Source: an uncultured Eubacteriales bacterium (lineage in GTDB: Bacteria > Bacillota > Clostridia > Christensenellales > UBA1242). Taken from it: a DNA stretch of 64,000 nt. Positions 11,309-33,865 of this stretch are shown piece by piece. The position numbers and the translations under genes are program-made. The DNA lies in assembly GCA_948695535.1 (NCBI GenBank), contig CAPRTS010000003.1, positions 21,107 through 85,106 of the forward strand. Reading direction: 5' to 3'. Under the pieces are notes generated by a model. The model was not told the origin of the DNA, made no database searches, and saw only the letters and a program-made list of their open reading frames with translations. Within the stretch, counting starts at the first letter, position 1, and each line of letters begins with the position of its first letter.

Positions 11309-11497
11309 ATGAGCAGAGTATGTGATTTGTGTGGAAAAGACAAACTGGCGGGTAACACTGTGTCGCACAGTAACCGTCGCGCACCGAAAAAAAGTGTGCC
11401 TAACTTACAAAAGGAAACTATCGTTTGTGACGATGGGGCAAAAGTGACTTTGAAAGTTTGCACTAAGTGCAAAAAAACCTTAAATAAAATCGGGTGA
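11309..11497 (+). CDS. rpmB: 50S ribosomal protein L28
   Basis: MSRVCDLCGKDKLAGNTVSHSNRRAPKKSVPNLQ is a typical L28 sequence. Confidence 0.9.
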   Translation: MSRVCDLCGKDKLAGNTVSHSNRRAPKKSVPNLQKETIVCDDGAKVTLKVCTKCKKTLNKIG

Positions 11498-11858: not shown

Positions 11859-13604
11859 ATGAGTAACACTAAAACAACAGCAAAAACCACTAAAAAGTCT
11901 ACTAATAATAAAACTGCTACCACTAAGTCGGCCAGTCCCGTTAAGGATAAAAAGGCAACCGCCATTACTACCTTAAACGGCAGCACTTTGAAAAAAATGT
12001 TCATTGGTGCGTACAATTTGTTAGATAAGAACAAAAATTTTATCAACAGTTTGAATGTTTTCCCCGTGCCGGACGGTGATACTGGCTTGAATATGAGTTT
12101 AACGTTACGGTCGGCTATCACCGAAGTCGAAAACATTAATACCAACAACATGGTAGAACTGACCGACGGCATTGCTCGTGGGGCTTTGAAAGGCGCCCGC
12201 GGTAACAGCGGCGTTATTACCAGCCAAATCTTGAAAGGTATGATGTCGGTGTTTGGAAAAGGCAACAATGATAACAAAATTACTACCAAAATTTTTGCTC
12301 AAGCCATGACGGAAGGAGCCAAAACCGCTTATTCAGCGGTTACTTTGCCGAAAGAAGGCACGATTTTAACGGTTATTCGCGTAATGGCAGAAGAAGCCGA
12401 AAAGATTGCCCGTAATACCACGGATTTTATCGCTTTCTTGCAAAAAGTTATTGATGCTGGGGAAATGATTTTGTCAAAAACACCCGACATGTTGCCGGTT
12501 TTGAAAAAAGCTGGGGTAGTTGATGCGGGCGGTCGCGGAGTGATTACCATTTTTATGGGTTGTTTGGCGACTTTGCAGGGTAACTTAGAGTTGATGGAAG
12601 TGAAAAACGACAAGGATACCACTGTTTTCCGAGATACAGCAGATGAAGTTGCTGAAATTGAAGATATTAGCGAAATTGAATTCGCCTACTGTACCGAATT
12701 TTTTGTGGTTAATATGAAAAAGACGACCACAACTGCTAGCATCGATAAATTCCGCGTTCGCTTAATGGAATTAGGTGACAGCGTTATTTGTGTCGGTGAC
12801 TTAAACATGATTAAAGTGCATGTACATACGAACACCCCGAACTTAGCGTTAGGTGCGGCGTTGGAGTTAGGTGAAATTACCAAAATTAAGATTGAAAATA
12901 TGTTGGAACAAAACCGTGAATTGCGTAACAGCCGTAATATTCCCGATAAAGAACAAGGTTTGGTCATGGTGGCAACGGGTGAAGGTATTCGGGCTTTGTT
13001 ACGTGACTTGGGAGTGGACTTCGTGATCAAAGGTGGACAAACCAGCAACCCCAGTGCGGAAGAAATTGCTACGGCATGTGACCGCGTGCACGCGAAAAAT
13101 GTTTTTGTGTTCCCCAACAACAAGAATATTGTCTTGGCGGCAATGAATGCCCAGTCGTTAACTAAGAAAAACATTGTGATTATCCCGACCAGTAGTGTTT
13201 GTGAAGGTATCGCAGCGGCAATTGCGTTCTCGCCTGATTGTACTATTGAAGAAAATACACAAACGTTTTTAACAACGATTAAAGCGGTGGTTTCGGCATC
13301 GGTAACCTATGCAGTACGGGACACCAAAATGGATAATTTGGATATTAAAAAAGGCGATATTATCGGTTTAGACGAAAAAGCCATAATCGCCAAAGGTAAG
13401 AACCCGGCCGAAGTTGCTGTTAAACTGTGCGAAAAATTAGTTACCGAAGAAACTGGTTCGATCACTTTGTATTTTGGTGAGGAAGTTAAAGAAAGTGATG
13501 CTACTGCTGTTGGTGAAAAAATTCAAAATAAATACCCGGCAACTGATGTTACCGTAGTCAACGGGGGACAAAGCATTTATTATTATTTGTTGGCTATTGA
13601 ATAA
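11859..13604 (+). CDS. DAK2 domain fusion protein (YloV-like)
   Basis: DAK2 motifs PVPDGDTGLNM and GARGNSGVI with a long YloV-type C-terminal domain. About 38 aa of K/T-rich N-terminal low-complexity extension. Confidence 0.85.
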   Translation: MSNTKTTAKTTKKSTNNKTATTKSASPVKDKKATAITTLNGSTLKKMFIGAYNLLDKNKNFINSLNVFPVPDGDTGLNMSLTLRSAITEVENINTNNMVELTDGIARGALKGARGNSGVITSQILKGMMSVFGKGNNDNKITTKIFAQAMTEGAKTAYSAVTLPKEGTILTVIRVMAEEAEKIARNTTDFIAFLQKVIDAGEMILSKTPDMLPVLKKAGVVDAGGRGVITIFMGCLATLQGNLELMEVKNDKDTTVFRDTADEVAEIEDISEIEFAYCTEFFVVNMKKTTTTASIDKFRVRLMELGDSVICVGDLNMIKVHVHTNTPNLALGAALELGEITKIKIENMLEQNRELRNSRNIPDKEQGLVMVATGEGIRALLRDLGVDFVIKGGQTSNPSAEEIATACDRVHAKNVFVFPNNKNIVLAAMNAQSLTKKNIVIIPTSSVCEGIAAAIAFSPDCTIEENTQTFLTTIKAVVSASVTYAVRDTKMDNLDIKKGDIIGLDEKAIIAKGKNPAEVAVKLCEKLVTEETGSITLYFGEEVKESDATAVGEKIQNKYPATDVTVVNGGQSIYYYLLAIE

Positions 13605-13651
13605 TTTAATTTTCGACAAATTTTGCACAAAGTTGCTTCATAGAGTTGGCT

Positions 13652-15136
13652 ATGAAGCAATTTTTAACCAAACTTGAAATTGGTGAACAAACGGTAATGG
13701 TTAGTGGTCTTTACCACAACAGTAAGTTGGTACGTCCGCAAGGTTTGTTTTTCGCGTTGTCGGGGGCAAGTTATATTGCGGAGGCGGTAGACAATGGCGC
13801 AACGGTGGTCATCACCGAAGTTGGGGTCGAAGTTCCCCAATCGGTCACGCATATTGTGGTTGATGATGTGCGCGAAAGTATGGCTTTGGTGAGTAAACAA
13901 TTTTATGGTAACGTAGTCGATCAAATGCGTGTGACCGGGATAGTTGGCACAAACGGTAAAACTACCACTGCGTATTTAGTACGGCACATTTTAGAAATGG
14001 CCACGGGAAAAAATGTCGGCTTAATTGGCACAACCGGAATTTATGGTGCGGGTCAACAGTGGAATGGTGTTACCACCTTAACAACTCCTGATCCTATTGA
14101 ATTGCATCAAGCGTTGTCCGCGATGTACCACAACGGCGTTCGTGATGTGGTTATGGAAGTTTCGGCACACGCTATTTATTACCGCAAAGTAGCAGGGATC
14201 AGTTATGCGGGGGTGATTTTTACCAATATTACGCAAGACCATTTGGACTTTTTTCAAACCTTTGAACACTACAAAAATACTAAAATTCTATTTTTTCGGG
14301 AATTAAAAACAGGCACAGTGGTCATCAATGCGGACGACAAATACGGTTTGGCGGTGGCGGACGCCGTGCGTAATAAACCAATGGTTAAAGCAATTTCTTA
14401 TTCCTTGAGGCAAGATACGATTGTGGGTACTGCGCAATGGGCGTTTGTTGATCAGGTCAAACTGACGGTAACGGGTAGTGATTTTAATCTAAGCAAAGTT
14501 GGTGCTTGTCATTTGGCCTTGCCGGGTTTGTACAATGTTTACAACGCCGTTGCGGCCGCCTTACTGTGTAACGACTACGGAGTAAAATGGCCTTTGGTGC
14601 AAGAAGCATTAAGCACTGTATCGGCTGTGCCGGGGCGTTTTAATACTTACAACATTAAAGGAGTAACCGCGATTATTGATTACGCTCATACGCCGGATGG
14701 GTTGGAAAAATTACTGACCAACGCCAAAGCCTTATTACCGGCGAAAGCTCACTTAACCGTTGTTTTCGGTTGCGGTGGTGACCGTGATCGCAGTAAGCGC
14801 CCGTTAATGGGTAAAATTGCGGCACAAATTGCCGACCACGTTGTCTTGACCAGTGACAATCCTCGTAACGAAGAACCCGACGCAATTATTGACGAAATTG
14901 AACGCGGTATTGTGACTATGGATGTAGCACACATGACTGCCAATTTGGACGGTACAGTTAATCAGCACGTACGTTTTGTGGATCGTGTTCAAGCCATCAA
15001 TTACGCAATTGAACACGCTGCGGTCGGCGACATTGTGGTTATAGCGGGTAAAGGACACGAAAACTATATTGATATTAAAGGGCAAAAAATTCCGTATATG
15101 GACCGCAAAGTGTTAGATAATATTTTACGGGGGTAA
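13652..15136 (+). CDS. murE: UDP-N-acetylmuramoyl-L-alanyl-D-glutamate--2,6-diaminopimelate ligase
   Basis: GTNGKTTT P-loop, the DNPRNEEP motif typical of the DAP-type, and GKGHE. Alternative TTG start at 13646. Confidence 0.9.
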   Translation: MKQFLTKLEIGEQTVMVSGLYHNSKLVRPQGLFFALSGASYIAEAVDNGATVVITEVGVEVPQSVTHIVVDDVRESMALVSKQFYGNVVDQMRVTGIVGTNGKTTTAYLVRHILEMATGKNVGLIGTTGIYGAGQQWNGVTTLTTPDPIELHQALSAMYHNGVRDVVMEVSAHAIYYRKVAGISYAGVIFTNITQDHLDFFQTFEHYKNTKILFFRELKTGTVVINADDKYGLAVADAVRNKPMVKAISYSLRQDTIVGTAQWAFVDQVKLTVTGSDFNLSKVGACHLALPGLYNVYNAVAAALLCNDYGVKWPLVQEALSTVSAVPGRFNTYNIKGVTAIIDYAHTPDGLEKLLTNAKALLPAKAHLTVVFGCGGDRDRSKRPLMGKIAAQIADHVVLTSDNPRNEEPDAIIDEIERGIVTMDVAHMTANLDGTVNQHVRFVDRVQAINYAIEHAAVGDIVVIAGKGHENYIDIKGQKIPYMDRKVLDNILRG

Positions 15137-15141
15137 ATGCG

Positions 15142-16125
15142 GTGGTTATCAAAACCGATTTGTGGTTAGTGTTATTGTCGTTTGTGCTGGCATTGTTGTG
15201 CGGTTTTATTTTTGTGCCACTTTTACAACGCTTAAAAGCGGGCCAGTCAATTTTGCGTTACGTTGAATTGCACGCGAACAAAGCGGGAACCCCAACCATG
15301 GGCGGTATAATCTTTATTTTGCCAATTGTCAGCGTCGCGGCTGTCTTGGTTGATTGGCAAACTACGCCCTTAGCAATTATGTTGATAGTTGCCAGTTTTG
15401 GTTACGGGTTAGTTGGCTTCTTGGATGATTTTTTGAAAATTAAACACCACCAAAATTTGGGCTTGCGGGCTTATCAAAAAATTATTGGCCAGTTAGGCAT
15501 CGCGTTGTTGGTGGCGTGGTTTTATACGCGGAGCAATCCTGCTGGTGAAATTTGGGTGCCGTTTTTTAACTGTTATTGGCAGATCGGCGGCGTTGGTATC
15601 TTTGCGTTAACCTTGTTAATTTTGGTAGCCACCACCAATGCGGTTAACTTGACGGATGGTCTTGATGGTTTGGCCGGTAGTACCAGTTTAGTTTACCTAT
15701 TGTTTTTATACGCACTGTTATCCTTAACGGATTGGGGTGATGAAATTGTCATTATCAGTCACATAATTGCGATTAGTATTGGCAGTTTGGCGGCCTATTT
15801 GCTTTTCAACACCAAAAAAGCATCCGTTTTCATGGGTGACACAGGGTCGTTATTTTTGGGTGGTTTAATTGCCATGGTTTCGTTATTCAGTGGTTTAGGG
15901 TTAGTTATTGTCGTGTTGGGCATTATGTTCGTGTGGTCAGCGTTAAGTACTATGTTGCAAGTTGCTTTCTTTAAAATAACCAAAGGTAAACGCATTTTCC
16001 GTATGGCACCATTTCATCACCATTTAGAGCAACGCGGTTGGCAGGAACCAAAAATTGTTGCTTTATACGTCATGATTACCGCGGTAATGGGCGTGGTCTT
16101 AATCTTGTCGTTAATGTATGTGTAA
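15142..16125 (+). CDS. mraY: phospho-N-acetylmuramoyl-pentapeptide transferase
   Basis: GTPTMGG, NAVNLTDGLDGLA, MGDTGSL and APFHHHLE motifs. GTG start. Confidence 0.9.
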   Translation: MVIKTDLWLVLLSFVLALLCGFIFVPLLQRLKAGQSILRYVELHANKAGTPTMGGIIFILPIVSVAAVLVDWQTTPLAIMLIVASFGYGLVGFLDDFLKIKHHQNLGLRAYQKIIGQLGIALLVAWFYTRSNPAGEIWVPFFNCYWQIGGVGIFALTLLILVATTNAVNLTDGLDGLAGSTSLVYLLFLYALLSLTDWGDEIVIISHIIAISIGSLAAYLLFNTKKASVFMGDTGSLFLGGLIAMVSLFSGLGLVIVVLGIMFVWSALSTMLQVAFFKITKGKRIFRMAPFHHHLEQRGWQEPKIVALYVMITAVMGVVLILSLMYV

Positions 16126-16150
16126 ATAATGATGTGCATATAAATGGGCT

Positions 16151-17434
16151 ATGAAAGCCAAAATAATCGGTTATGGTGTCAGCGGCAAGGCAGCAGAAAG
16201 CTTTTTAGCGGCGCGACAAATTGAAACCGTAGTGGTTGCCGATGCCGAAGAAGTAGTTCCGTTGGATTACGATTTTTGTGTACTATCTCCAGGTGTTCCA
16301 TTAGCCAAAGTTAAAACGGAAGATGTTCCGGTTGTCGCCGAAGTTGAGTTACCTTTTTATCTTGATAAAAATATTAAACCACGTTGTGTAATTGCCGTGA
16401 CGGGTACTAATGGTAAAACGACCGTAGTTAAACAAATCACGCAGATGTGCCAAACCGCGGGTAAAGCGGTGGTAATGTGTGGGAACGTCGGTGTACCGGT
16501 TTCGCGGGTTGCCGAACAACTTAATGACCACATTGCCGTTATTGAAGTGTCGTCCTTTATGTTAGAACAGACACAAATTTTGCGACCGCAGATCGCAGTG
16601 TTAACTAATATTACGTCGGATCATTTAGACCGTCACCAAACTATGGCGGAATACGTGCGTTGCAAGCAACAAATTGTGGCAAATCAAAAACGTGGTGACA
16701 TTTTAATCGTGAATTGGGACGATGCTAATGCACGTGCCGTAGGACAAGCGGTGGCCAAGACTCGCGTTACCAAAGTAATTTGGTACAGCACAAGCGAACC
16801 CGTCACGGGCTACTATGTGCGCAAAGGACAAATTTACGAACGTTTAGGGTGGCGAACGCGCTCGCTTTTTGCCGCCACTGACTTGGGTGGTATGCCACAC
16901 ACCTTGTCAAACGCGTTAGCCGTAGTGGCGGTAGGCCGACGGTTAGGTGTACCTTTGTCGGCAATTAAAACTGCAACCCGTTACCGTGAACAAGAACACC
17001 GGATCGCTTTGGTTGCCGATCAGCAAGGGGTGGCTTACTACGACGACAGTAAGGCCACCAACATGGCGGCGACCATAGCGGCAACGCAAGCCTTTCAATT
17101 ACCGGTTTGTTTGATTTTGTGTGGGCTAACCAAGGGACAAGATTATCACGAATTATTTAGTGCTTTGCCAGCAACCGTGCAGAGTATTATTGTGTTCGGG
17201 GCTTGTCAAGAAACCGTTACCGCGGTTGCCAGAGAAGTCGGTTTTAAGGCAGTGTATCCAGTGCCTGATTTAACTGCTGCTGTGGCTAAGGCAGCAAGTA
17301 TAGCACCACGTCCCGGCGTAGTACTATTTAGTCCCGCAGGTAGTAGTTTTGACCAGTTCCACGATTACGCTGCCCGGGGTAACGCTTTCCAAACTGCGGT
17401 ACGTAATTTAGTTATGGTAACGCCACAATGTTAG
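16151..17434 (+). CDS. murD: UDP-N-acetylmuramoylalanine--D-glutamate ligase
   Basis: VTGTNGKTT, NITSDHLDRH and DDSKATN motifs, within dcw context. Confidence 0.9.
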   Translation: MKAKIIGYGVSGKAAESFLAARQIETVVVADAEEVVPLDYDFCVLSPGVPLAKVKTEDVPVVAEVELPFYLDKNIKPRCVIAVTGTNGKTTVVKQITQMCQTAGKAVVMCGNVGVPVSRVAEQLNDHIAVIEVSSFMLEQTQILRPQIAVLTNITSDHLDRHQTMAEYVRCKQQIVANQKRGDILIVNWDDANARAVGQAVAKTRVTKVIWYSTSEPVTGYYVRKGQIYERLGWRTRSLFAATDLGGMPHTLSNALAVVAVGRRLGVPLSAIKTATRYREQEHRIALVADQQGVAYYDDSKATNMAATIAATQAFQLPVCLILCGLTKGQDYHELFSALPATVQSIIVFGACQETVTAVAREVGFKAVYPVPDLTAAVAKAASIAPRPGVVLFSPAGSSFDQFHDYAARGNAFQTAVRNLVMVTPQC

Positions 17435-18743
17435 CGCCCAATTGCTGTAAATCCTTAACAATGTCTTGGTGACCACGGGCGATATAATCGGCGTGGTCAA
17501 TAGTGCAAGTCCCCTTAGTGGCCAAGGCAGCAATAACCAAAGCAACACCACCGCGTAAATCCGTAGCGTTTAACTTTGTTCCCGTGCAAACGGCGGGGGC
17601 TGGTACTCGGTAAGCACTGGGACAAAGGTTCGGGGTTGGTTGGGCTTGTAACTCGGTAACGCCGCAAATGTGGGCTTGGTTGCCTTGGATAGTAATTTTG
17701 GCACCTAATTTAATCAGTTCTGGTAGGTAGCGAAAACGATTTTCAAAAAGATTTTCGGTGATAGTACTGCGACCGTGTGTGAGTGCCAGTAGTACGCAAA
17801 ATTGACTTTGTAAATCAGTTGGGAAACCCGGGTAGGGAGCAGTATGAACCATAAAATTATGGTGGCGGCGACGTTTAGCAATAATGTGTAAAGTATCAGT
17901 CGAAGTCGTAATTTTGGCACCAAGTAACTTCAATTTATTGATTAAATTGACGTTGTGAGCGGGAACAACGTTGCGTAAAATTACGTCCCCACCAGTCGCT
18001 GTGACAGCGATTAAGTATGTTCCCGTGTTGATGCGGTCGGGAATTGGAGTATAGTCGGTACCGTGTAATTGGGCGACACTGGTGACCGTAATGGTGTCGG
18101 TACCGGCGCCGGTTATTTGGGCGCCACATTGGTTTAAAAAATTACAAAGGTCAACAATCTCCGGCTCTTTGGCAACGCCAATAATTTGGTAAGTGTTACC
18201 CGCACAACCTAAGGTTGTGGCTTGAATAATGTTTTCGGTAGCCCCGACCGATGGAAAGTCTAAGGTCAGTACAGTGGTACGACGTTTGGGTTTGGGGGTG
18301 TAGGTCGCAGTAATAGTGGTGGCTGAAGTTTTAATTTTAACCCCAATTTGTCGTAGTAAGTTAAGGTGCAAATCAATGGGGCGACTGCCGATCGAACAAC
18401 CGCCGGGATAAGGTAATTTAACGGCACCTAAGCGTGCCAACAAGGCGCCCATAACAAAAATGCTGCCACGAATTTGTCGGGCGGCAGTTGCGTCAATTTG
18501 GTGCGTAGTAGGTCGTTGCACGTCAATTTTAACGGTATCACTTTGGCGATGAATGTGGCACCCCAAGCCAGCTAAAATATGTAGCATTTGCCGTAGGTCG
18601 GTAATTTGGGGCACGTGACGCAAGCGTACACTGCCGTTAACCATTAAGCACGCGGTCATAATTGGTAATAGACTATTTTTGGCACCATCAATAGTGATTG
18701 TGCCATACAATGGGCGACCGCCTGTGATTTGTATCTTCGACAT
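17412..18743 (-). CDS. murA: UDP-N-acetylglucosamine 1-carboxyvinyltransferase
   Basis: MSKIQITGGRPLYGTITIDGAKNS start, the GGCSIGSRPIDLH active-site loop, and a full-length EPT fold. Its 3' end overlaps murD by 23 nt. Confidence 0.9.
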   Translation of the reverse strand: MSKIQITGGRPLYGTITIDGAKNSLLPIMTACLMVNGSVRLRHVPQITDLRQMLHILAGLGCHIHRQSDTVKIDVQRPTTHQIDATAARQIRGSIFVMGALLARLGAVKLPYPGGCSIGSRPIDLHLNLLRQIGVKIKTSATTITATYTPKPKRRTTVLTLDFPSVGATENIIQATTLGCAGNTYQIIGVAKEPEIVDLCNFLNQCGAQITGAGTDTITVTSVAQLHGTDYTPIPDRINTGTYLIAVTATGGDVILRNVVPAHNVNLINKLKLLGAKITTSTDTLHIIAKRRRHHNFMVHTAPYPGFPTDLQSQFCVLLALTHGRSTITENLFENRFRYLPELIKLGAKITIQGNQAHICGVTELQAQPTPNLCPSAYRVPAPAVCTGTKLNATDLRGGVALVIAALATKGTCTIDHADYIARGHQDIVKDLQQLGANIVALP

Positions 18744-18758: not shown

Positions 18759-18787
18759 TTGACCACGCGGTCAGTGTGACTTATAAT
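18759..18787 (+). promoter_or_regulatory. promoter of the FtsQ-like gene, predicted leaderless
   Basis: TTGACC (18759-18764), N17, TATAAT (18782-18787), N7, ATG 18795. Confidence 0.5.
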
Positions 18788-18794
18788 TTAATTG

Positions 18795-19598
18795 ATGAAA
18801 AGTAAGGTTTTGTTGACCATGCTGATTATCCTGGTTGTCTTGGCAGGACTTGGCATTATGTGCGGTACCATTTTTGTAGTGCGTGATGTCGAAGTTGTTG
18901 ACGCCAATCCCGCGACAATTTTGTCGGCGGAAGAAAAAAACAACATTGTTACTAAAACTGAATTACATGGCAAAAATATTTTGTTCAGTATTAACCAAAA
19001 CAAGATTAAAGCCAATATTAAGGCTTGTGATCCAATGTATAAAGTCCACAGTATTAAAACTGAATTTCCTAACAAAGTGGTTATCAAAATTTCGCGGCGC
19101 GTACCAATTTATTGGGATCAGGTTAACAGCAAATATTATGATGCGGACATGTACGTTGTTAAGGAAATGGGGACAACGCCAACCGATTGCGTGGATATTA
19201 CGGGAGCCAATTTGCAATTAAAAGAAGACGTGAATTATGGTGACCTTGCTGTGGGTAAAACCAGTACCGATAACCGTAAAATTAACCAATTAAAACTTGT
19301 GGCGGCTTATTTCCCAACTTTAAGTGGGTTTACGCTTAAATATAATGACGATGCCGCACACGTCGGTGGCAAGTTAATTTGCTTACATCTTACCGTGGCT
19401 TATGGGGTGACTTTTGAACTTAAAACCATGGCTGACGATGACTTTGCGCACCTGTTGGCGTTTGTGAATACGGTTTATCAAAACGAAGCTAAACAAGCGA
19501 CCGGTAATTACAAAGCGATGTATCACCAGTCGGGCAAATGTACCGTTAAATACACCGATCTTGGCGGTAATGGAGAAAAAACTTATGTTGAAAAATAA
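18795..19598 (+). CDS. FtsQ/DivIB-like cell division protein (N-terminal TM plus POTRA)
   Basis: One N-terminal TM helix, then a POTRA-like VRDVEVVDANP...FPNKVVIKISRRVPI. Position after the mur genes. Confidence 0.6.
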   Translation: MKSKVLLTMLIILVVLAGLGIMCGTIFVVRDVEVVDANPATILSAEEKNNIVTKTELHGKNILFSINQNKIKANIKACDPMYKVHSIKTEFPNKVVIKISRRVPIYWDQVNSKYYDADMYVVKEMGTTPTDCVDITGANLQLKEDVNYGDLAVGKTSTDNRKINQLKLVAAYFPTLSGFTLKYNDDAAHVGGKLICLHLTVAYGVTFELKTMADDDFAHLLAFVNTVYQNEAKQATGNYKAMYHQSGKCTVKYTDLGGNGEKTYVEK

Positions 19599-20667
19599 TG
19601 TAGCAGTCATTTATTTTGACGATATGCAGATAGTGGGACGTATCGCGTCCGTGTCTTATGGTAAGGCGATTACGCCGTTGGTTACCATACGTAAGGATTA
19701 CAGCGGTATCATGGACAATGTTTTTACTGACCGCGAAGAGTTTAAGGCTACGTTCAGTGAAGTCTTAACCGAAATGGTGGCGGGGGTTAATCGTCTGCCG
19801 ACCGTACTTTATATTGGTGTGCCAAATCAATTCTGCCATGTGGAGACACAAAGCAGTGAAATTGAGTTTGACCGCATGACTAAGGTTAACAAGCACCATA
19901 TTCAAGCCTTGTGGGAAGATGCTCAATTTAATACCGAGCACCGCGAAGTGATCGCTAAAAAGGCTTTATATTTCAAATTAGAAGAATACGAAGATGTATT
20001 ATTAGATGCGATTGGTGTGGCAACGGTGGGTTTATCGATGGTCGCCAGCGTGATCTCGGTAAGTAATGAATTGCGCCCAGTAATCAATAGTACGGCCGTT
20101 AACCGCTTAGGTTTTACCGATTTTGCTTTTGTTAATTTGGCGGACGCAGAGTTATTTATGATCCCCGAAAAAGATCGTGACGCGGGCTGCAGTTTAATTC
20201 GTAGTGATTTCTTTTCGACTTCGGTGGCAAACATTATCGGTGATGGGGTAACGCAATTATCGCACTTTAATCTTGGCATGGGGCATTTAGTCAGTGAAAT
20301 TGCCGATAACTTTGGCTTGGATTACGAATCAGCACGACAATTGTTGTTACGGGCGACACCAACTTACGAAATGTTGTTGGAAGAAACATATACCGCCAAT
20401 GGTGATACCATTCCAGCGGGAATTTTTAACGAATTTATCGCCAAAAGAATTAACGAATTTGGTAACCGTTTGTCGAACTTTGATACCGCACGTATCGTTT
20501 ATTTGTCTGGTGGTAATTACGACCAGATTTACGGTATCAGCAGTGTTTTAGCCAATATATGCGAACGCCGTTTTTATCAATGTCAAGATGTTTTGAACGG
20601 AGCAACCAGTTATCCAGAAAATACATTAAACGCCTTGATTCGTTTCGTCGTGGCGAAAAATAGTTGA
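19585..20667 (+). CDS. FtsA-like actin-fold protein with degenerate nucleotide-binding motifs
   Basis: Collinear with the FtsA layout (IYFDD... for DIG, GCSLIRSDFFSTSV for DIGGGTT, VYLSGGN for TGG). The phosphate-binding Gly motifs are not conserved. Overlaps the FtsQ-like stop by 14 nt. Confidence 0.5.
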   Translation: MLKNNVAVIYFDDMQIVGRIASVSYGKAITPLVTIRKDYSGIMDNVFTDREEFKATFSEVLTEMVAGVNRLPTVLYIGVPNQFCHVETQSSEIEFDRMTKVNKHHIQALWEDAQFNTEHREVIAKKALYFKLEEYEDVLLDAIGVATVGLSMVASVISVSNELRPVINSTAVNRLGFTDFAFVNLADAELFMIPEKDRDAGCSLIRSDFFSTSVANIIGDGVTQLSHFNLGMGHLVSEIADNFGLDYESARQLLLRATPTYEMLLEETYTANGDTIPAGIFNEFIAKRINEFGNRLSNFDTARIVYLSGGNYDQIYGISSVLANICERRFYQCQDVLNGATSYPENTLNALIRFVVAKNS

Positions 20668-20742
20668 TTTTTTTTGCGTTAGGGTCTTGAAATTTATAAA
20701 GTAATAGTTTACTCTTTTAGTAAAAATAAAGGAGAAATTATT

Positions 20743-21702
20743 ATGTATGATACATTTGCACAAAGTGAAGCCGAATTCGCCTCAGCCTATTTGAGTTACA
20801 AATTGGAACGTGGTGGCGCCCCGTTTGCCAGCCAAGACGAATTGCTGGGGGCGGCTTTGGCCTTTGCCAACACTCATGGTTACGGGGAATGTTTCCCTAA
20901 ACTGAAAAAATTTATGTTTAACGATTTTGCGACCGTAACCACTCAGTTGCAAGATTTAATTAGTAATGAAAACGGGGACGCGAAAAAAGTTGGAGTAATT
21001 CGCTATGGTAATAAATTATTGCCGACTTATGATTTCCGCGATATTGGTGATGCCGCCAGTGCAGTACCATTTATGCATTATTTAAGTCATCATGAATTTC
21101 CTACGCCAAAAGAAGTCAACTATGGGGCAGAAATTAATCCGCAGTATCGTTTTAACGCGGCGGCAGGTGCCGAATATTTGACGGACTTTTTAGCGGATAA
21201 GTTTGCTGCCTACGAAACTGAACATGGTAAAGGCACAGCAACGACCGTGCAATTGAACAATGGTTACGCGAATAGTGGAAAAACATTACGCGTCCTGGAA
21301 AACAAGGCGTTCTTCCAAGGTTTTAACCAAGTAGCCACGCGTTTCTTGGCAGATTTGATGACGAATAACGATGGCTTTGCCCAAATTTCCAACCAAGCAG
21401 GTGGCAATTTGGCTTACAATAACTGGTGCCGTTTATTGGCCGGATTCCCCATTTTACAACGCTTTATACGGAATGTTGATGTTGATGGTAAGGAATTTAC
21501 TATGACGTTGACTCCGCAAAGTGTACGTGTGGAAGAAGTGCAATTTGCTCCGCATTTGGTGGCTGCTGAACAAGCCGACGGCTGTCGTCATACGCAAATT
21601 GACTTGTTAACAGGATTTAGCATGCCGGCTCCCAAGTTGCAACATTGCACAGTTAGTACTTCACATTTGGCTCGCGAAGTTAATGAACGGTTGCGACCGT
21701 AA
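20743..21702 (+). CDS. hypothetical protein, no recognisable family
   Basis: 319-aa ORF with a strong SD AAAGGAGA 8 nt upstream. Soluble-looking, no motif I can name. Confidence 0.7.
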   Translation: MYDTFAQSEAEFASAYLSYKLERGGAPFASQDELLGAALAFANTHGYGECFPKLKKFMFNDFATVTTQLQDLISNENGDAKKVGVIRYGNKLLPTYDFRDIGDAASAVPFMHYLSHHEFPTPKEVNYGAEINPQYRFNAAAGAEYLTDFLADKFAAYETEHGKGTATTVQLNNGYANSGKTLRVLENKAFFQGFNQVATRFLADLMTNNDGFAQISNQAGGNLAYNNWCRLLAGFPILQRFIRNVDVDGKEFTMTLTPQSVRVEEVQFAPHLVAAEQADGCRHTQIDLLTGFSMPAPKLQHCTVSTSHLAREVNERLRP

Positions 21703-21716
21703 ATTAAAAGGGTAAA

Positions 21717-22982
21717 ATGAAATTACGTTATTTAGTCGGTTTTGGTGACCCTTGGCAGTGCTTTGCTAAGTATTACGCTAAGGTTGGGCAAGTTACGCCC
21801 GTTTATGCTACGCGCTTGTTAGTGATGCTTAATGAACCTAAACAATTACTTTATCATTTACAACGTAACGACGATTCGGTCTTGGCACAACATATTGCCA
21901 ATATCTGCGACGAACGGTCACCTTTCATTAAAGATATCAAAAAAATTTTTTCGGCATCACAAATGGCAGTGTGGTGCAGTAGTTATCAACAGTTGTTACG
22001 AGAAGGAGTTAACTTTGAACGTTTTTTTAATCCGTTTTATACCTTCCAAAAAATTCAACGCCGCGATGGGCAACAATCTAGTATCGCTCGCGCTTATCAA
22101 GACCCACATGATTTCATGATGAATCAAAAACTATTGGACGCTTTACGACTGGATACTTGTCCGGCCACCACCAGCGAAGGACGCGCCTTGTGGACGTATA
22201 CTAAATTGTGTTCGGTGTTGAAATATGACGAAGGTTACATGTATCACGAATACCGTGACAATTTGAATGATTATCCTGACCGCAGTTTTGAATTAGTTGA
22301 ACAAGTAACCCCGGCAACGCCGATAACTTGCTATAATTTTTCGCGCATAGCCGTAAAATTATTGAACCAAATTCCTGGTATCAAGGCAACAATCATCGCA
22401 TTGGGCAAAAATCTTGGCCATTTTCGTTTTGGTTTTTATTCGGATAAAATGTCGGTTGACATAGAAGCTATTAATGCGGTGGGCAGTTTTAATGATTTGG
22501 CACGTGCCAAGTTGGGTATGCCCCCCAAAGGGATAAAGGCAATTTATGGTGAAAATTTAGTAAATCATTTATTGGCTGAGGTAGTGACACCGTGGCTCAA
22601 AACCCAACCGCAACCAATTACACAATATCTAACGTCACTGAAAAAAATTCCCAGTACGTCATCACCAACGCCGATCGATTTCCCAATGTTGCTGAAAACT
22701 TTGCAAGCCCACAATATTACGGGAACTGATGCTTTGCAAGTAATGTTAAACATGAATGTTAAGTTCGCGCAAGAAAGGTACGTTATGGCACGGGCGGGTA
22801 CAGTAACGAAACAGGGTGTGACGCCGTATTTGTTTGTGCGGCAAGGTGAAAAAATCATTGCAGTAGATTTAGAAAAAATGAACATTGAGCCTTGCGATGC
22901 TGATTTGTTACGCCGTTACTTAGCCAAAGATGCGGTAGTCTACGCTGACGATGATCACACTTTGGGCGACCTGTGCCGTTGA
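21717..22982 (+). CDS. hypothetical protein, no recognisable family
   Basis: 421-aa ORF 14 nt downstream of the previous gene and followed by an intrinsic terminator. No motif I can name. Confidence 0.7.
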   Translation: MKLRYLVGFGDPWQCFAKYYAKVGQVTPVYATRLLVMLNEPKQLLYHLQRNDDSVLAQHIANICDERSPFIKDIKKIFSASQMAVWCSSYQQLLREGVNFERFFNPFYTFQKIQRRDGQQSSIARAYQDPHDFMMNQKLLDALRLDTCPATTSEGRALWTYTKLCSVLKYDEGYMYHEYRDNLNDYPDRSFELVEQVTPATPITCYNFSRIAVKLLNQIPGIKATIIALGKNLGHFRFGFYSDKMSVDIEAINAVGSFNDLARAKLGMPPKGIKAIYGENLVNHLLAEVVTPWLKTQPQPITQYLTSLKKIPSTSSPTPIDFPMLLKTLQAHNITGTDALQVMLNMNVKFAQERYVMARAGTVTKQGVTPYLFVRQGEKIIAVDLEKMNIEPCDADLLRRYLAKDAVVYADDDHTLGDLCR

Positions 22983-23004: not shown

Positions 23005-23030
23005 AACTCACCAACAGGTGAGTTTTTTTA
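23005..23030 (+). terminator. rho-independent terminator
   Basis: Stem AACTCACC / GGTGAGTT with loop AACA, followed by a T-run, 23 nt after the 21717-22982 stop. Confidence 0.6.
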
Positions 23031-23058
23031 TCGTTAAAGACTTAAAAAATACTTGACA

Positions 23059-23075
23059 GGGGGGGGGGGGGGGGG
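23059..23075. repeat. G17 homopolymer tract
   Basis: 17 consecutive G directly abutting a TTGACA hexamer (23053-23058), 78 nt upstream of ATG 23153. Confidence 0.95.
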
Positions 23076-23152: not shown

Positions 23153-24520
23153 ATGGCAAAATTGGGTAAACAATGGGGCGTAGTAATTGGGTGTTGGTGC
23201 GTGACATTGGTATTGGCGGTTACGGGGGTGTGCCTGGCGCTGACTATCCCCAGCAAAGCCGTGGACGATGAAACTTTTGTAAGGGTGGCAGAAATTTGGG
23301 AAAACCCAAATCACGTGCAAGAATTGTACAACGCGTTAACCGGTCAAAGCGGGGCGACTTTGGCTGACGTTAAAGCGTTAGTGCCGGACGCGGACAGTGC
23401 CTTTGACGCGGCGCAAATTCGTGCCAACAACAACGAAAAAAATATTATCTTAACTTTTGGTGGCCAAGAATGGCACGTGTGCTACTTATCCAATGATACC
23501 GACGGTAACCCGATTTTGACCTTGTGGGCGTTAAATAGTGTTGCGGAAAATCTTAGGCCTTTTATTGGTGGTGTCACTAACGACAGTGAAATGAGTAATA
23601 TTGCGGATCCGGAATGCCGGGCTAATTATAACACCTGGTATTCACGAGCCGTGGTCAATAACGGTGGACGCTATATTGGTGAACAGAAAAACGAAGATAC
23701 CGGTTTCTACGAACATTGTTGGCTAGAATACGAGCCGGTGACGGATTATGCGTTGCAAGAATTCTTACCTGGTGGTAAATACGCGACGGCCATCGTTACG
23801 CCGCAACACGTGGCTTGGCAAACCGAACGTCAGTCGAGTACTAATAGGCATAACTTAAATATTAAACTGGACGATAATTTATGGTTACCGCATACGTTGG
23901 AAATTGGCTACGATTACCAACTCCAATCCACTCCGTCGTACGGTAATTGGCGCTTGAATACGAATGGTAATGCCCAAGGTCCGGTGGCGGAGTTAAGTTT
24001 GCTTCGTGGTGCGTTTGGTTATGATTATGTTTATCAAGTACGTTATGTACAGAAAAATGGGAGCAGTTATTATACTCCGCTTAAATTTTCGCCTGCCAGT
24101 GTTGTCCCGGCCTTGCATTTGAATTTGAACGCGGACGAATTGCACGTACATGATTATCAAGAAACAAAAGTCGTCCCGGCCACGTGTATAGAACAAGGTT
24201 ACACGAAACATACTTGCATTTGCGGTGACAGTTACCAGAGTGATTTCACGGCCAAAATCGACCATGATTGGGGCGAATGGGTAACCGCACAAGAACCAAC
24301 CGCGACCAAGGAAGGCCTTGCTAAACGTCAATGTCAATACGGTTGCGGAACGACCGAACAGAAAATTATAGCGGCCTTGGGCGGTAGTGACGCCGACACC
24401 AACCACGATACAGTCAAAACTTGGGCAATTGTCGGTGGTGTATCCGGCGGCGTGTTAGTTTTAGGCGGTGGTACAATCAGTTGGCTATACATTATTCGCA
24501 AACGCAAGTCGCTTAAATAA
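23153..24520 (+). CDS. membrane-anchored extracytoplasmic protein (N-terminal signal/anchor, Cys-rich module, C-terminal TM anchor)
   Basis: N-terminal hydrophobic segment. FGGQEWHV...ILTLWAL and PALHLNL resemble the DUF6273-type fold. Cys-rich module ATCIEQGYTKHTCICG...HDWGEW...RQCQYGCG. C-terminal TM helix plus RKRKSLK tail. Confidence 0.75.
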   Translation: MAKLGKQWGVVIGCWCVTLVLAVTGVCLALTIPSKAVDDETFVRVAEIWENPNHVQELYNALTGQSGATLADVKALVPDADSAFDAAQIRANNNEKNIILTFGGQEWHVCYLSNDTDGNPILTLWALNSVAENLRPFIGGVTNDSEMSNIADPECRANYNTWYSRAVVNNGGRYIGEQKNEDTGFYEHCWLEYEPVTDYALQEFLPGGKYATAIVTPQHVAWQTERQSSTNRHNLNIKLDDNLWLPHTLEIGYDYQLQSTPSYGNWRLNTNGNAQGPVAELSLLRGAFGYDYVYQVRYVQKNGSSYYTPLKFSPASVVPALHLNLNADELHVHDYQETKVVPATCIEQGYTKHTCICGDSYQSDFTAKIDHDWGEWVTAQEPTATKEGLAKRQCQYGCGTTEQKIIAALGGSDADTNHDTVKTWAIVGGVSGGVLVLGGGTISWLYIIRKRKSLK

Positions 24521-24565: not shown

Positions 24566-25213
24566 TCATTCGCTGTAATTGCCGACGGTGGCGACGGTTA
24601 AAATTTGGACATCGGCGACGCCGGCTGCCCGTAAGGCATCACGGCACGCGCCCGTCGTCGCACCAGTAGTATAAACGTCATCAATCAGCAAAATGTTTTG
24701 GTCGCGCACATCAGTCACGTGCTCGGGCGGTACGGCAAAAGCGCCTTGCATGTTCTTGGCACGCGTGGCGGCGTCCATGTGTTTTTGAATAACAGTTTTG
24801 CGGGTACGCAGTAAAACATCGTCGCGGACTGGTAAATCCAGATAGGTGGCTAACTCCCGCGCCAACAATAAACTTTGGTTAAAACCGCGTTCGCGAAAAC
24901 GACTTTTCGCCAAAGGCACCGGCACGATAATAAAAGTCTTGTCTTGCTTTTGAATACAGTGCAGATAAATGGCGGCCAAGTACGGTGCCAAGGCTTTCGC
25001 GACCAGACCGTTGTCGTTGTACTTCAAACTTAAAATCATACTGCGCACCGGTTCAGCATAACGAAATGGTGCATAATGGGTGGTAGTGGCTTCTGACATA
25101 ATTGGTAACTTGTTCATACACCGGGTACATAAATATGGATTGTCGGAATGTTGAATTTCTTGACCACAGGCTTGGCAAGTATAATTTGGTAACCACCAGT
25201 CCCAAAAGTTCAT
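24566..25213 (-). CDS. comFC: ComF family protein (ComFC-like phosphoribosyltransferase)
   Basis: N-terminal zinc finger CQACG...CTRC and the PRTase motif ILLIDDVYTTGATT. The ORF is open to a TTG at 25252; the first ATG is at 25213. Confidence 0.75.
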   Translation of the reverse strand: MNFWDWWLPNYTCQACGQEIQHSDNPYLCTRCMNKLPIMSEATTTHYAPFRYAEPVRSMILSLKYNDNGLVAKALAPYLAAIYLHCIQKQDKTFIIVPVPLAKSRFRERGFNQSLLLARELATYLDLPVRDDVLLRTRKTVIQKHMDAATRAKNMQGAFAVPPEHVTDVRDQNILLIDDVYTTGATTGACRDALRAAGVADVQILTVATVGNYSE

Positions 25214-25270
25214 ACGCCAGCATATAACCTTGACGGTGGCTAGGCCAAGCAAATTTTCATGGCGTGGACA

Positions 25271-30412: not shown

Positions 30413-33400
30413 ATGTTGACTATGGGGGGAACACCAAAGAAGGTAGCAATGTTGCGAGCATTGTGGCTCTGCTTGGCAGTGTTTTTTTCCCTGTTAGCTG
30501 TAACCGCAACCAGCAACTTATTGGGTACTGTCGCTCGTGAAGAGCGTGGGGGGACATTGGAACCCAGTAATAACGTATATGAAGATCCGGACTTATACAC
30601 CGAATGGATTAACTTAGTTTCGGGTGAAGAATATGGGTTTTCGAACCATCCGTTTGGCACCAAAACAATTTACATTATGGACGAAGGCGAGTTAGCCAAT
30701 CTTAATCGCGCTTTAACCATGAACGTCAACGATTACTCGGGGTATACATTTATTTTAGCAAGCGACCTTGATATGTCGAAAAAATATCCTTCCAGTGAAA
30801 GTAAAGAACCAGTCCCTGCCGTATGGACACCAATTAACACCACGCCGGGAACTAACACCGGAATTATTTTTGATGGTAATGGGAAGAAAATCAGTAACTT
30901 GTTAATGATTATGAATGACGACGAAACTGTAACTGACGGAGTTAGGGCAAACAATGGTTTCGGTTTCTTTGGTAATTTAACGGGCTGCACGGTACGCAAT
31001 GTAACGTTTGAAAATCCGGTCATTAAATATACATATGTTGGGGACAGCAAAACCTCAACTGACCCAGAACGTCCTACTGCTCCCGTGCCAGTGGGAATTG
31101 GTGTGGTCGCGGGAATCGCGGAAAATGCTTACGTGAACAAGGTGAATATTGTTAACCCACAAATAACGGTGACAACCAATAATGCTAATGGTCACAGTCT
31201 TTACGTGGGTGGTGTGGTTGGCAAAATGGTTTACGACGCTTATGATGCGACGCCGTTGTTGCAAAGCGTAACCAACCCTGATGACCCTACTGACGTTGAG
31301 CACCGTTGGGGGGTTGACACGGTGACGGTAACTGCGGGCGAAGGTACTAAATTTGACGTAACGGTGACCCCGGGGTCAGAGACTTATAATCAAACTTACG
31401 GTATGGCAACCTTTGGTTATATTGGTGGAGTAGTCGGTTACAACAATTCGGCCAAGGTTATTAACAGCAAGGTGCAAGGGCTAAATATTAATCCGCAAAT
31501 TCCGGAAAATGCTTTCGGTAATTATTACGTTGGTGGGTTGGCCGGTTTCTCTATGCTGCGTGTTAAAACCTTAAACGATGTGGTCTTGGCCGGGGTAATT
31601 AACAACGTAATTATCGACAGCACGGTCACCAGCGGTAATGTTAACACTGATAGTATTGCTAGGACTGTTTATTCCGTGCATTCGGGGGCTTTGGTTGGTC
31701 AAATTTATGATAGTTGGGTGTACAATAATATCGCCATTAACGATGACAAATCTTTGCCGCTGTATGGCTCGTTTTGGAATCGTAAGTATAATATTTTTTA
31801 TGACTCTTGTTTGGGTTACTTCGATTATGAAAGGCTTTTAGGTAGTGATTATTTCTTGATCGGTGAAGAAACTGTGCTGGCGGGGGAAACTGTTACAACG
31901 CTTGATTTTAGTCGGTGTAAACCACAGTTGTATGGTTATTATTGGGTGTGTCGTCATCACACAGTAAAAGACGATAAAGTTATTTTCCCTTATCTAAGTG
32001 ACAATTCTGAAAACGAAAATTTTGAACTTTACGCCAACCAGTATAACTTTCAAATGACTAAGCAGGAATTTGCAACTTTCAAAAACGGGGCAGTGTTTGG
32101 CAAGTTTGCTGATTTTGAAAATAAGGACGGAAATTTCTTCGAAATCGGTAAACAAAGAGTGTTGTACGAAGCTCCTTACCGCGGTACGGCAGAACCCGGT
32201 AAGGGGGACTATAACGACCAAACAAGAATACGAAAAGCGGTTAACGAATTGCGAGTATGGAAAGTGGATGAGAACGGCGAACCCGGATTTGGCGATAATT
32301 TGGGTTACGATTACGATGTTGTTTTTCATGCCAATGGCGAGAATATGAAACACGACTTTGGCGATGCGGGGCGTGCCAATGCCGGGTGGGTGCAAAAGGG
32401 CGAATATGAATACATGGATACAATTTTGACCCAAAAAATTAAAAAATATAAGTATAAAGAAAAAATTGAATCTTTAACTGGCCAAGAAATGCCGACTTGC
32501 GAAGGTTGGAAATTTGATGGTTGGTATGCTGATGCCGATTGCCAAGATCGTGACGAAAGTGAGCAGTTTAATTTTGCTACTGCCGAGATGAAAGGAAGCA
32601 CCATTAATCTTTATGCGAAGTGGGTAGTTAAAACGTACGATGTGGAATATTACCTAGACGAAAATGATGCGGAGCCTTATCGTGTTGACCACGGAGTTGT
32701 TTATGGCAGTTATATAATGAAACCGGCCGATCCTGAATTACCAGCAACTGAACAGTTTTTAGGTAAGTCGTTTGCTGGCTATTGGTATTACTTAGAAGCT
32801 TATTACGAATACGATGAAAATGGAAACCCAGTGGGGGAACCGGAGTACCGCGAAGCTGGTGAATGGGTGTTTGATAATGTTGAGAATTACAGCCCGATGC
32901 CGGGACAAGTCTTGAAATTATACGCAGGTATTCAAGACGATTTCGTAATCTTACGGGAAGTGATGGAATCAACGGAGGTTCAATTTGCGTTAACTCACCA
33001 AGATTGTTATACTGCGGATAGTTTCAAAATTTTTCAAACCGCTTATGATAACGGGCGGGCTGTTATGGAAGCGTCAAGCAATTTACCGGATGACCAAACA
33101 GTTAGTCAAGTTGTTGCTACCATACGGGACACCTTGGCAGCCTTAGTCGTTAACATTGAAGCTTTTAAGGCCTTGCCACCTTTTGACGAAAACGTTGACC
33201 AAAATCGTTATCCATTCTTGTATCAAGATTACGATGCTGCGAGTCCCGATTTTCACCCTTATCGTGACTATACTGATGCTAAACGTGCAGCCTTGAATTA
33301 TTTGAATGTGGAAATTGCCAATCCGGATATGTTGCATAATGTGGAACGCTACTTATATATCCGCGATACTTTGCTGAGTAAATACAATAATTTGGCGTTT

Positions 33401-33865
33401 AACCCTAATCCTAATTTGGGAATGAATACAGAATTGGTTAACGCCGTCAAGCAGGGTTATACACAAATTATGCAAACGATTGATGACATAAACCCTGATG
33501 ATTATACAAAACAAAGTTGGGATAATGTTAACTTTAACTTGGTAATTGACGATTTTAAAAAAACTTTCAAAAGTGATTACCAAAATCCCTATATTGCTGA
33601 TATGAAAAAGGCGATCGATAATTACCATGCAGCCAAGGCACAGTTGGTACGTAACCAAGGTAATACTGACGTGCCTAATGCAACAGTAGGTAAAAAATCG
33701 GGAGTTGCTTCGCAAATAATAATTGGCGTAATGGTTTTCTTACTGGCGATTGGCGGTGTCAGTGGTTACATTGGCTTTGATCTATACATGAACAAGAAGG
33801 TTAAACCCAAAAAAGAACAAGCCGAAAAGGCTGAACGTGCGGCCGCCGATGATACTTACATCTAA
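30413..33865 (+). CDS. large cell-surface protein with GLUG-type motifs, a Listeria/Bacteroides B-repeat and a C-terminal membrane anchor
   Basis: Signal peptide. Repeated GGVVG/GGLAG segments (YVGGVVGKM, YIGGVVGYNN, YVGGLAGFS). B-repeat CEGWKFDGWYADADC...INLYAKW. C-terminal TM helix plus a K/E-rich tail. Confidence 0.8.
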   Translation: MLTMGGTPKKVAMLRALWLCLAVFFSLLAVTATSNLLGTVAREERGGTLEPSNNVYEDPDLYTEWINLVSGEEYGFSNHPFGTKTIYIMDEGELANLNRALTMNVNDYSGYTFILASDLDMSKKYPSSESKEPVPAVWTPINTTPGTNTGIIFDGNGKKISNLLMIMNDDETVTDGVRANNGFGFFGNLTGCTVRNVTFENPVIKYTYVGDSKTSTDPERPTAPVPVGIGVVAGIAENAYVNKVNIVNPQITVTTNNANGHSLYVGGVVGKMVYDAYDATPLLQSVTNPDDPTDVEHRWGVDTVTVTAGEGTKFDVTVTPGSETYNQTYGMATFGYIGGVVGYNNSAKVINSKVQGLNINPQIPENAFGNYYVGGLAGFSMLRVKTLNDVVLAGVINNVIIDSTVTSGNVNTDSIARTVYSVHSGALVGQIYDSWVYNNIAINDDKSLPLYGSFWNRKYNIFYDSCLGYFDYERLLGSDYFLIGEETVLAGETVTTLDFSRCKPQLYGYYWVCRHHTVKDDKVIFPYLSDNSENENFELYANQYNFQMTKQEFATFKNGAVFGKFADFENKDGNFFEIGKQRVLYEAPYRGTAEPGKGDYNDQTRIRKAVNELRVWKVDENGEPGFGDNLGYDYDVVFHANGENMKHDFGDAGRANAGWVQKGEYEYMDTILTQKIKKYKYKEKIESLTGQEMPTCEGWKFDGWYADADCQDRDESEQFNFATAEMKGSTINLYAKWVVKTYDVEYYLDENDAEPYRVDHGVVYGSYIMKPADPELPATEQFLGKSFAGYWYYLEAYYEYDENGNPVGEPEYREAGEWVFDNVENYSPMPGQVLKLYAGIQDDFVILREVMESTEVQFALTHQDCYTADSFKIFQTAYDNGRAVMEASSNLPDDQTVSQVVATIRDTLAALVVNIEAFKALPPFDENVDQNRYPFLYQDYDAASPDFHPYRDYTDAKRAALNYLNVEIANPDMLHNVERYLYIRDTLLSKYNNLAFNPNPNLGMNTELVNAVKQGYTQIMQTIDDINPDDYTKQSWDNVNFNLVIDDFKKTFKSDYQNPYIADMKKAIDNYHAAKAQLVRNQGNTDVPNATVGKKSGVASQIIIGVMVFLLAIGGVSGYIGFDLYMNKKVKPKKEQAEKAERAAADDTYI

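Follow-up and report, generated by a model that had tools for sequence, protein, structure and literature searches.

Two fast-evolving genes, one encoding a putative Cys-His-Asp enzyme, in a variable slot behind a divergent FtsA-like gene of gut and rumen Clostridia

In many Firmicutes ftsZ follows ftsA in the dcw cluster of cell wall and division genes, and small sets of poorly characterised, taxon-restricted genes are found amongst the divIB and ftsA genes, as with ylxW-ylxX-sbp between divIB and ftsA in B. subtilis. The composition of this cluster varies in Clostridia (PMC10693644). The stretch of DNA analysed here, 64,000 nt of an uncultured Eubacteriales bacterium (Christensenellales, UBA1242; assembly GCA_948695535.1, contig CAPRTS010000003.1, positions 21,107 to 85,106 of the forward strand) and hereafter called the window, carries murE, mraY and murD, followed by an FtsQ-like and an FtsA-like gene. 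Behind these lie two open reading frames (ORFs) on the forward strand: ORF A (20743..21702), encoding a soluble protein of 319 aa, and ORF B (21717..22982), encoding a soluble, multi-domain protein of 421 aa. They resemble the lineage genes of Firmicute dcw clusters in their surroundings, but no sequence kinship to those genes was found, the pair lies after the FtsA-like gene, and the slot it occupies is empty in some close relatives.

The second set of described systems relevant to this locus is the transglutaminase/papain-like superfamily, which includes PF01841, BTLCP, PNGase and the arylamine N-acetyltransferases, and is defined by a Cys-His-Asp/Glu triad (PMC4866520). The spacing between the first two of these residues is C-35-H in VASH1 and C-32-H in the bacterial protease CPR-C4 (PMC4866520, PMC9108980), the latter demonstrating that kinship of this kind can go unseen in the sequences (PMC9108980). 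Vasohibins need a small alpha-helical partner, and the vasohibin-SVBP complex acts on the tubulin tail. 'Dark' thiol enzymes have proved to be real proteases before, CPR-C4 being one example.

The explanation we favour, and consider slightly likelier to be right than wrong, is that ORF A and ORF B are lineage-restricted, fast-evolving accessory genes lodged in a variable slot, neither standing in for ftsZ nor having displaced it, and that ORF B is a thiol enzyme. Evidence for the slot comes from nine related lineages, including those of the window and its sister species, which share the gene order FakA-murE-mraY-murD-(murA)-FtsQ-like-FtsA-like; the window comes from an uncultured gut/rumen Clostridia lineage, loci of relatives are labelled L001-L026, and proteins are given P-numbers. 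Whilst the FtsQ-like gene is kept at the same position in all relatives, what lies between the FtsA-like gene and a ComF-like phosphoribosyltransferase gene converging on it from the minus strand (24566..25252) varies by lineage, and this slot is at times empty. In the window and its sister species (L001-L003, L007) it holds ORF A, ORF B and a hypervariable surface protein gene, ahead of the ComF-like gene. In three lineages (L004, L005 and L006), ORF B begins 1-12 nt after the FtsA-like gene and is followed by a gene of 70-73 aa. Two further lineages have unrelated genes there, an 86-aa EncFtn-like gene in L017 and a 269-aa protein plus a rubrerythrin in L018, in both cases followed by the ComF-like gene, which comes directly after the FtsA-like gene in L019 and L026. 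The ComF-like gene, always on the minus strand, is thereby kept as the far border of the slot in L001, L017, L018, L019 and L026. Counted by lineage, the slot is empty in two, filled with unrelated genes in two, and occupied by ORF B and its approximately 70-aa partner in three and by both ORF A and ORF B in two, such that ORF B directly follows the FtsA-like gene in five of the nine and is missing from the slot in the other four.

The contents of the slot also diverge more quickly than their surroundings. Compared with the sister species, the neighbouring genes of the window are 81-96% identical and the FtsA-like one 91%; the values for ORF A, ORF B and the surface protein are 59%, 64% and 28%, respectively. 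Judged by these alignments, the three genes make up an island that evolves fast whilst its borders are conserved. Rearrangement between lineages extends past the slot as well, with a Cas9 gene (14534-17050) approximately 5 kb downstream of the FtsA-like slot in L018.

The first-pass annotation regarded the pair as occupying the place where ftsZ would be expected. This was an expectation rather than an observation: ftsZ follows the FtsA-like gene in none of the nine lineages, those with an empty slot included, and was already absent from the slot in their common ancestor. A tblastn search with B. subtilis FtsZ, which recovered the E. coli FtsZ control at 1.7e-89, found no match in the 64-kb window or in loci L001-L019. 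Nor are ORF A and ORF B disguised forms of FtsZ, as they have neither the GGG[TS]G[TS]G tubulin signature nor any similarity to FtsZ in tblastn. An alternative offered by the same annotation, that the pair is an insertion which pushed ftsZ from its place after ftsA, accords with the usual Firmicute gene order and with a slot that does hold inserted material and is variable, being empty in two lineages. However, ftsZ is equally missing where the slot is empty (L019, L026) or filled with other cargo (L017, L018), and the dcw cluster of this clade was already fragmented: ftsW/spoVE (3766-5046) lies behind priA, approximately 10 kb upstream, murA is inverted, and none of ftsI, murG, mraZ or rsmH adjoins murE. 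Displacement of ftsZ by these genes is contradicted by the data and therefore rejected as highly improbable. What resembled a replacement for ftsZ is instead cargo in a variable slot, and therefore no unusual mechanism of division needs to be invoked.

Both ORFs, the extents of which were confirmed, are genuine genes: they have a strong Shine-Dalgarno (SD) sequence, a terminator and conserved homologues (56-64% identical in the sister species), and the nonsynonymous divergence from the sister species (dN 0.27-0.32) is well below the saturated synonymous divergence (dS). As first remarked, neither belongs to a recognisable family, with no match to either in Pfam, NCBIfam, PHROGs, PADLOC or PDB sequences, and motif and hydrophobicity scans agreed that neither has a tubulin signature or a transmembrane-grade hydrophobic stretch (maximum KD19 of 0.7 and 1.4, respectively); a conserved NTP-binding motif was likewise absent from both. 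Confident homology to unrelated families was looked for in the curated libraries and in phage and plasmid records, without any such match being found. Kinship with phage tail proteins, raised by weak matches to PHROG and Pre_tape_measure models (E ~0.01-0.02), was rejected, as tblastn found no match in 50,697 phage records, the BFVD was uninformative and the PHROGs search with the pair gave only noise at E >= 0.01; plasmid records were equally devoid of tblastn matches. Membership of a defence system was dismissed on the negative PADLOC result. A mobile island bounded by repeats was also rejected, none being found to flank the pair, and there is no shift in GC content. Taken as a whole, the initial observation was largely correct, with the exceptions of its expectation regarding ftsZ, the label given to the FtsA-like gene and the uniqueness of the terminator, none of which was fully borne out.

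The proposed function of ORF B rests on a set of invariant residues. Cys205, His235 and Asp248 are unchanged in 13 ORF B sequences, down to 32% identity, as are C148, C165, D243 and E250. In the window, the putative catalytic segment spans 22329..22460 on the forward strand, with the codon for Cys205 at 22329-22331, that for His235 at 22419-22421 and that for Asp248 at 22458-22460. An AlphaFold2 (AF2) model of the protein, with a predicted local distance difference test score (pLDDT) of 76.5 and a predicted template modelling score (pTM) of 0.67, is composed of a helical domain (aa 1-109), an alpha/beta core (aa 137-277), a helical region (aa 279-349) and a beta domain (aa 356-409). Within the core, Cys205 is at the N-terminus of a helix (205-216), which is followed by a strand (223-229), another strand that His235 starts (236-241) and a third containing Asp248 (246-249). 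Read as an order of elements, at a local pLDDT of 63-92, the helix-strand-strand-strand arrangement of the predicted model is that of the papain/transglutaminase-like core, and the triad, spaced C-30-H-13-D, follows the Cys...His...Asp order of the superfamily. Approximately 22 of the top 50 Foldseek matches in the PDB are thiol enzymes of papain/transglutaminase fold, including USPs, VASH1/2-SVBP, the transglutaminase 4xz7 and the NAT-like GdmF, although all are weak and none is significant.

ORF B resembles members of this superfamily in its ordered Cys-His-Asp residues and, if the predicted model is right, in having the cysteine at the N-terminus of a helix and the other two residues on the strands that follow, yet differs in its multi-domain form, with an N-terminal helical and a C-terminal beta domain, in the extra Cys148 and Cys165, and in the lack of any significant match. 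It is about as probable as not that ORF B works in the cytoplasm as a Cys-His-Asp enzyme with a protein or peptide as its substrate, the specificity of the enzyme being given by the N-terminal domain, a small partner protein, or both. Cys205 would serve as the nucleophile, with His235 and Asp248 presented on the strands that follow, and depending on the reaction the enzyme would be a protease, a deamidase or a transamidase; its targeting or regulation would fall to the N-terminal helical domain together with the small partner. The pair itself sits at the 3' end of the conserved FtsQ-like/FtsA-like unit as accessory cargo.

Several results weigh against the explanation that we favour. The best Foldseek match to ORF B has an E-value of 0.16 and TM-scores do not exceed 0.27, such that there is no significant superposition; Pfam at E <= 10 finds nothing in any of 10 ORF B members, a PDB profile search with ORF B gives nothing relevant, and hhalign of ORF B against core segments of PNGase and TGM2 returns a probability of approximately 0.1%. 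The invariance of C148 and C165 leaves room for a metal site, the distance of only 1-12 nt between ORF B and the FtsA-like gene in three lineages suggests more than passive co-location, and ORF A provides neither a usable structural model nor a functional clue.

One alternative is that ORF B is not an enzyme at all, with C148, C165, C205 and H235 binding a structural metal in a scaffold or regulator, the C-terminal part of which may be winged-helix-like. Four invariant Cys/His residues are available for such a site, no enzyme family is significantly matched, and residues 323-374 weakly match Z-alpha/winged-helix domains, although at E-values of 0.6-0.8 these matches are not significant either. 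However, a cysteine at the N-terminus of a helix, with His235 and Asp248 on the next strands, is, if the model is right, the layout of a catalytic site rather than of a typical zinc knuckle, and a CCCH site leaves the invariant Asp248 unexplained. We consider this alternative unlikely.

The distribution of ORF B extends beyond the dcw genes. Approximately 18 loci are known, falling into two clades. Members of the first are linked to the dcw genes and have the extra N-terminal helical domain of approximately 106 aa, some having a further extension of approximately 125 aa (giving proteins of 539-543 aa); the helical domain is confined to forms encoded beside the FtsA-like gene. The second clade comprises a short form of 333-360 aa found between divergent pth/mfd and rplJ-rplL (L009-L011, L020). 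In L008, two short copies lie in tandem (693-1712 and 1795-2763). At eight loci, spanning both clades, a gene for a helical protein of 70-79 aa abuts or overlaps the stop codon of ORF B; examples are at 4070-4291 in L004, 11245-11457 in L005, 11629-11841 in L006, 2766-2996 in L008, 10969-11208 in L009 and 7038-7265 in L020. This small partner, which has weak RuvA_C/UBA-like matches (E = 0.002-0.1), is missing from the window and the sister species. Nor is it concealed at another place in the window or within either of the two ORFs, as a hidden Markov model (HMM) of the partner finds only the partner genes. ORF B and its approximately 70-aa partner are the older unit, from which the window lineage has lost the partner.

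In the light of this distribution, the suggestion in the first-pass annotation that the two proteins are lineage-specific division, morphogenesis or sporulation factors holds only in part. Linkage to the dcw genes fails for ORF A, which occurs there in the two sister species only, and is partial for ORF B, given its presence in five of the nine lineages and the pth/rplJ site of the second clade; the pair as such does not show the linkage expected of a division factor. It is nevertheless conceivable that this lineage uses ORF B, perhaps with ORF A, as a factor dedicated to division or sporulation, co-expressed with the FtsA-like protein and acting on it or on FtsZ, for instance through processing or cross-linking of a divisome component. 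The position of ORF B behind the FtsA-like gene in those five lineages, with the smallest gaps in L004-L006, the restriction of the extra N-terminal domain to the dcw-linked forms, the lack of a terminator between the FtsA-like gene and ORF A, and the ability of the organism to sporulate (SpoIIIA genes are present in L002 and SipL in the window) all agree with such a role. Against this, four lineages have the FtsQ-like/FtsA-like pair with no ORF B in the slot, the second clade keeps its short ORF B between pth/mfd and rplJ, relatives of ORF A have no common division-gene neighbours, the dN rate of ORF B is 5-6 times that of the FtsA-like gene, and ORF A has a conserved promoter-like element in front of it. 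A dedicated role in division is accordingly improbable, and it is speculative to read a substrate in the divisome into the tight packing that three lineages show between the FtsA-like gene and ORF B.

The patchy presence of ORF B in the FtsA-like slot could also be explained were ORF B and the small partner a mobile toxin/immunity or defence module, found at different housekeeping sites, with ORF A as further cargo. They form a unit of two genes in which the stop codon of one overlaps the start codon of the other (as in L004, at 4070-4291), evolve quickly, differ in genomic location between the two clades and have undergone the tandem duplication in L008. Yet the position within each clade is stable, which looks like vertical inheritance, the PADLOC, PHROGs, phage and plasmid searches were negative, and neither flanking repeats nor a GC anomaly accompany the genes; furthermore, the retention of ORF B without its partner in the window lineage would be odd for a toxin. 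We regard a conflict module as having little likelihood.

If ORF B is instead the thiol enzyme that we favour, the vasohibins provide a parallel for its association with a small partner. VASH1/2-SVBP chains recur in the weak Foldseek matches (6jzd, 6j4s, 6jze, 6qby, 6j8n), the Cys-to-His spacing of 30 is near the 35 of VASH1 and the 32 of CPR-C4, and the gene of the approximately 70-aa helical partner comes after ORF B in most cases. On the other hand, the Foldseek matches to vasohibins (E = 0.7-1.0, TM <= 0.27) are not significant, the third residue of the ORF B triad is the side chain of an Asp, rather than a backbone carbonyl or Ser, ORF B of the window has no partner gene, and nothing ties the small partner to SVBP; the parallel may serve as a lead only. 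Taken to its furthest extent, it would make ORF B the founder of a hitherto unrecognised group of vasohibin-like, partner-assisted thiol peptidases, taken up in one clade of Clostridia into the operon of a divergent FtsA and there trimming or otherwise modifying the tail of FtsZ or of the FtsA-like protein. This is a long shot, resting on analogy, but if true it would represent a bacterial counterpart of tubulin detyrosination by vasohibin-SVBP, with the FtsA-like neighbour and its altered nucleotide motifs forming part of the same remodelled divisome. Regardless of its substrate, ORF B represents a compact family, absent from curated libraries, in which a Cys-His-Asp set is cleanly invariant and a tiny helical partner is often present, and for these reasons should be an easy target for structure determination or activity-based probing.

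ORF A has a different history. Whilst a word-indexed search detected only two relatives, an exhaustive HMMER search found 21, mostly clostridial proteins of approximately 290 aa that share the motifs E-x-x-FLS-x-Y, L-x-PTY-x-F and GNL-x-(Y/F)-NN, and the family as a whole has no Pfam, PHROG or PDB match. Their neighbourhoods differ, lying for instance near spo0A in L013 and near murB/spoIVB/dacB/degV in L014, and profile searches of all fetched loci found no relative adjoining an ORF B or FtsA-like homologue outside the window species and its sister, the only two in which ORF A follows the FtsA-like gene. Since its relatives sit in such mutually different contexts, none of them near ORF B or an FtsA-like gene, ORF A appears, from its sequence relationships, to have been acquired independently from an uncharacterised family of Clostridia, and most likely would be a soluble protein merely sharing a transcription unit with ORF B. 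By the same comparisons, ORF A and ORF B belong to families with no kinship to each other, which only the window species and its sister bring together. They add to the known repertoire two protein families missing from curated libraries, of which one probably has a new thiol-enzyme architecture, alongside a probable FtsA homologue invisible to Pfam.

The AF2 model of ORF A, built from three sequences only, has a pLDDT of 43 and is unusable. A Walker-A-like sequence, GYANSGKT (aa 174-181), was discarded as a chance match, because it falls inside an insertion absent from the sister species. Two genes near the ORF A relative in L014, of 355 aa and 261 aa, were considered as FtsA-like and FtsQ-like candidates and rejected, and fusion of ORF A into the long (539-543 aa) forms of ORF B was dismissed when BLASTP of ORF A against one of these, P0006, revealed no similarity. 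In L013, a partial copy of an ORF A-family gene (680-1222) lies directly upstream of a full copy (1238-2116). Three giant proteins, P0024 (2579 aa), P0029 (1755 aa) and P0030 (963 aa), each have between 6 and 14 repeated short matches to the ORF A profile, at profile positions 260-311, 231-292 and 206-237, respectively; the matched segment may be a repeat-type module.

The gene upstream of the pair (19570..20667, forward strand, with the start at 19570 or 19585) encodes a protein of 360-366 aa which misses every curated FtsA, PilM and MreB model. No Pfam or NCBIfam match was found even at E <= 10, no PDB match was found with the single sequence, and hhalign against E. coli FtsA was negative. 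The protein is strongly conserved within the lineage; homologues fall into at least 41 clusters, with identities of 40-67%, of which one is named FtsA by JGI and none has a Pfam domain. With a profile of 24 sequences, the best PDB matches are S. aureus FtsA (3WT0 and 3WQT, E = 0.037-0.057), and the alignment is collinear over approximately 290 residues (38-325 against 55-357). Like FtsA, the protein keeps the C-terminal 'LSGGN' adenosine-motif position, and its gene follows that of a POTRA FtsQ-like protein as ftsA does; it differs in its phosphate-1 and phosphate-2 motifs, where the actin-fold consensus is not kept (FDD stands in place of DIG, and RSDFFST in place of the DIGGGT type). The label given to it at the outset thus has S. 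aureus FtsA at the head of the profile search in its favour, but at E-values of only around 0.04 and with no family match; the gene is likely, if weakly demonstrated from its sequence, to encode a remote and highly divergent FtsA homologue. Because this protein is invisible to Pfam and NCBIfam, inventories of division genes in these gut and rumen Clostridia metagenome-assembled genomes will wrongly score FtsA as absent.

ORF A is preceded by the SD sequence AAAGGAGA (20728-20735, forward strand), 7 nt before its ATG, the strength of which had been pointed out initially. ORF A and ORF B form an SD-led bicistron, in the window species and its sister alike, which is closed by an intrinsic terminator (23005..23031, forward strand) composed of the hairpin AACTCACC-AACA-GGTGAGTT followed by T7, with a folding energy of -8.5 kcal/mol. 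This terminator had been taken for the only clean one in the window, and is indeed present after the pair, but it is not unique, as a second clean intergenic example (CACGGGA-TTCG-TTCCGTG plus T6, at approximately 37397-37418) follows the L17 gene. There is no terminator between the FtsA-like gene and ORF A. In the 75-nt gap separating them is a promoter-like element, TTGAAA-17-TACTCT (20687..20715, forward strand), the second half of which is TATGCT in the sister species in the alignment of the window with L001; it is graded as weak because it was read from the sequence and a consensus scan made no call. A better candidate, TTGACC-17-TATAAT (18759..18787, forward strand), matches the consensus at 11 of 12 positions directly before the start of the FtsQ-like gene (TTG/ATG), in a leaderless-type arrangement, and is the probable start of the FtsQ-like/FtsA-like transcription unit. 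Near-consensus -10 boxes (TATAAT or TACAAT) ending 5-8 nt before a start codon, with no SD sequence, are found at 6172, 8761, 18792/18795 and 25309. Because many neighbouring genes have a -10 box right before the start in this way, the description of these genes as leaderless was reasonable, and the sequences suggest that the organism makes frequent leaderless mRNAs.

The genes at the upstream end of the region shared by the nine lineages are FakA (11859-13604), murE (13646-15136), mraY (15142-16125) and murD (16151-17434). These, other than FakA, had been listed along with the POTRA protein at first sight and were all found; a murA-type gene with an EPSP-synthase fold (17412-18743, minus strand), lying between murD and the FtsQ-like gene, had gone without mention. 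Its 3' end overlaps that of murD by 23 nt (17412-17434), on the opposite strand, and its wedged position between the two genes is kept in all nine related lineages. The FtsQ/DivIB-like gene (18792-19598, forward strand) encodes an N-terminal transmembrane segment and a POTRA_1 domain (PF08478, E = 1.5e-5, over the curated cut-off).

Downstream of the pair, the third gene of the island (23153..24520, forward strand) encodes a membrane-anchored surface protein of 455 aa, with an N-terminal signal/anchor and a C-terminal transmembrane segment, of which only the first approximately 45 aa are conserved in the sister species. Upstream of it, marking where the variable island is bounded rather than belonging to the pair, is TTGACA followed by a homopolymer of 17 G residues (23053..23075, forward strand). 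TTGACA with a poly-G tract (G16-G19) is kept in the sister loci L001 (approximately 11390-11420) and L002 (approximately 11390-11440), and is, on this pattern, a candidate slipped-strand switch for phase variation of the surface protein. The assembly of L002 breaks at the tract, with a run of N residues and then poly-C. Elsewhere in the window, an ORF of 1441 aa (41460-45785) lies in a region of very strong AT skew (0.31-0.33, compared with approximately 0 elsewhere), and a protein of 1150 aa with a Listeria-Bacteroides repeat is encoded at 30413-33865; together they point to large repetitive surface proteins.

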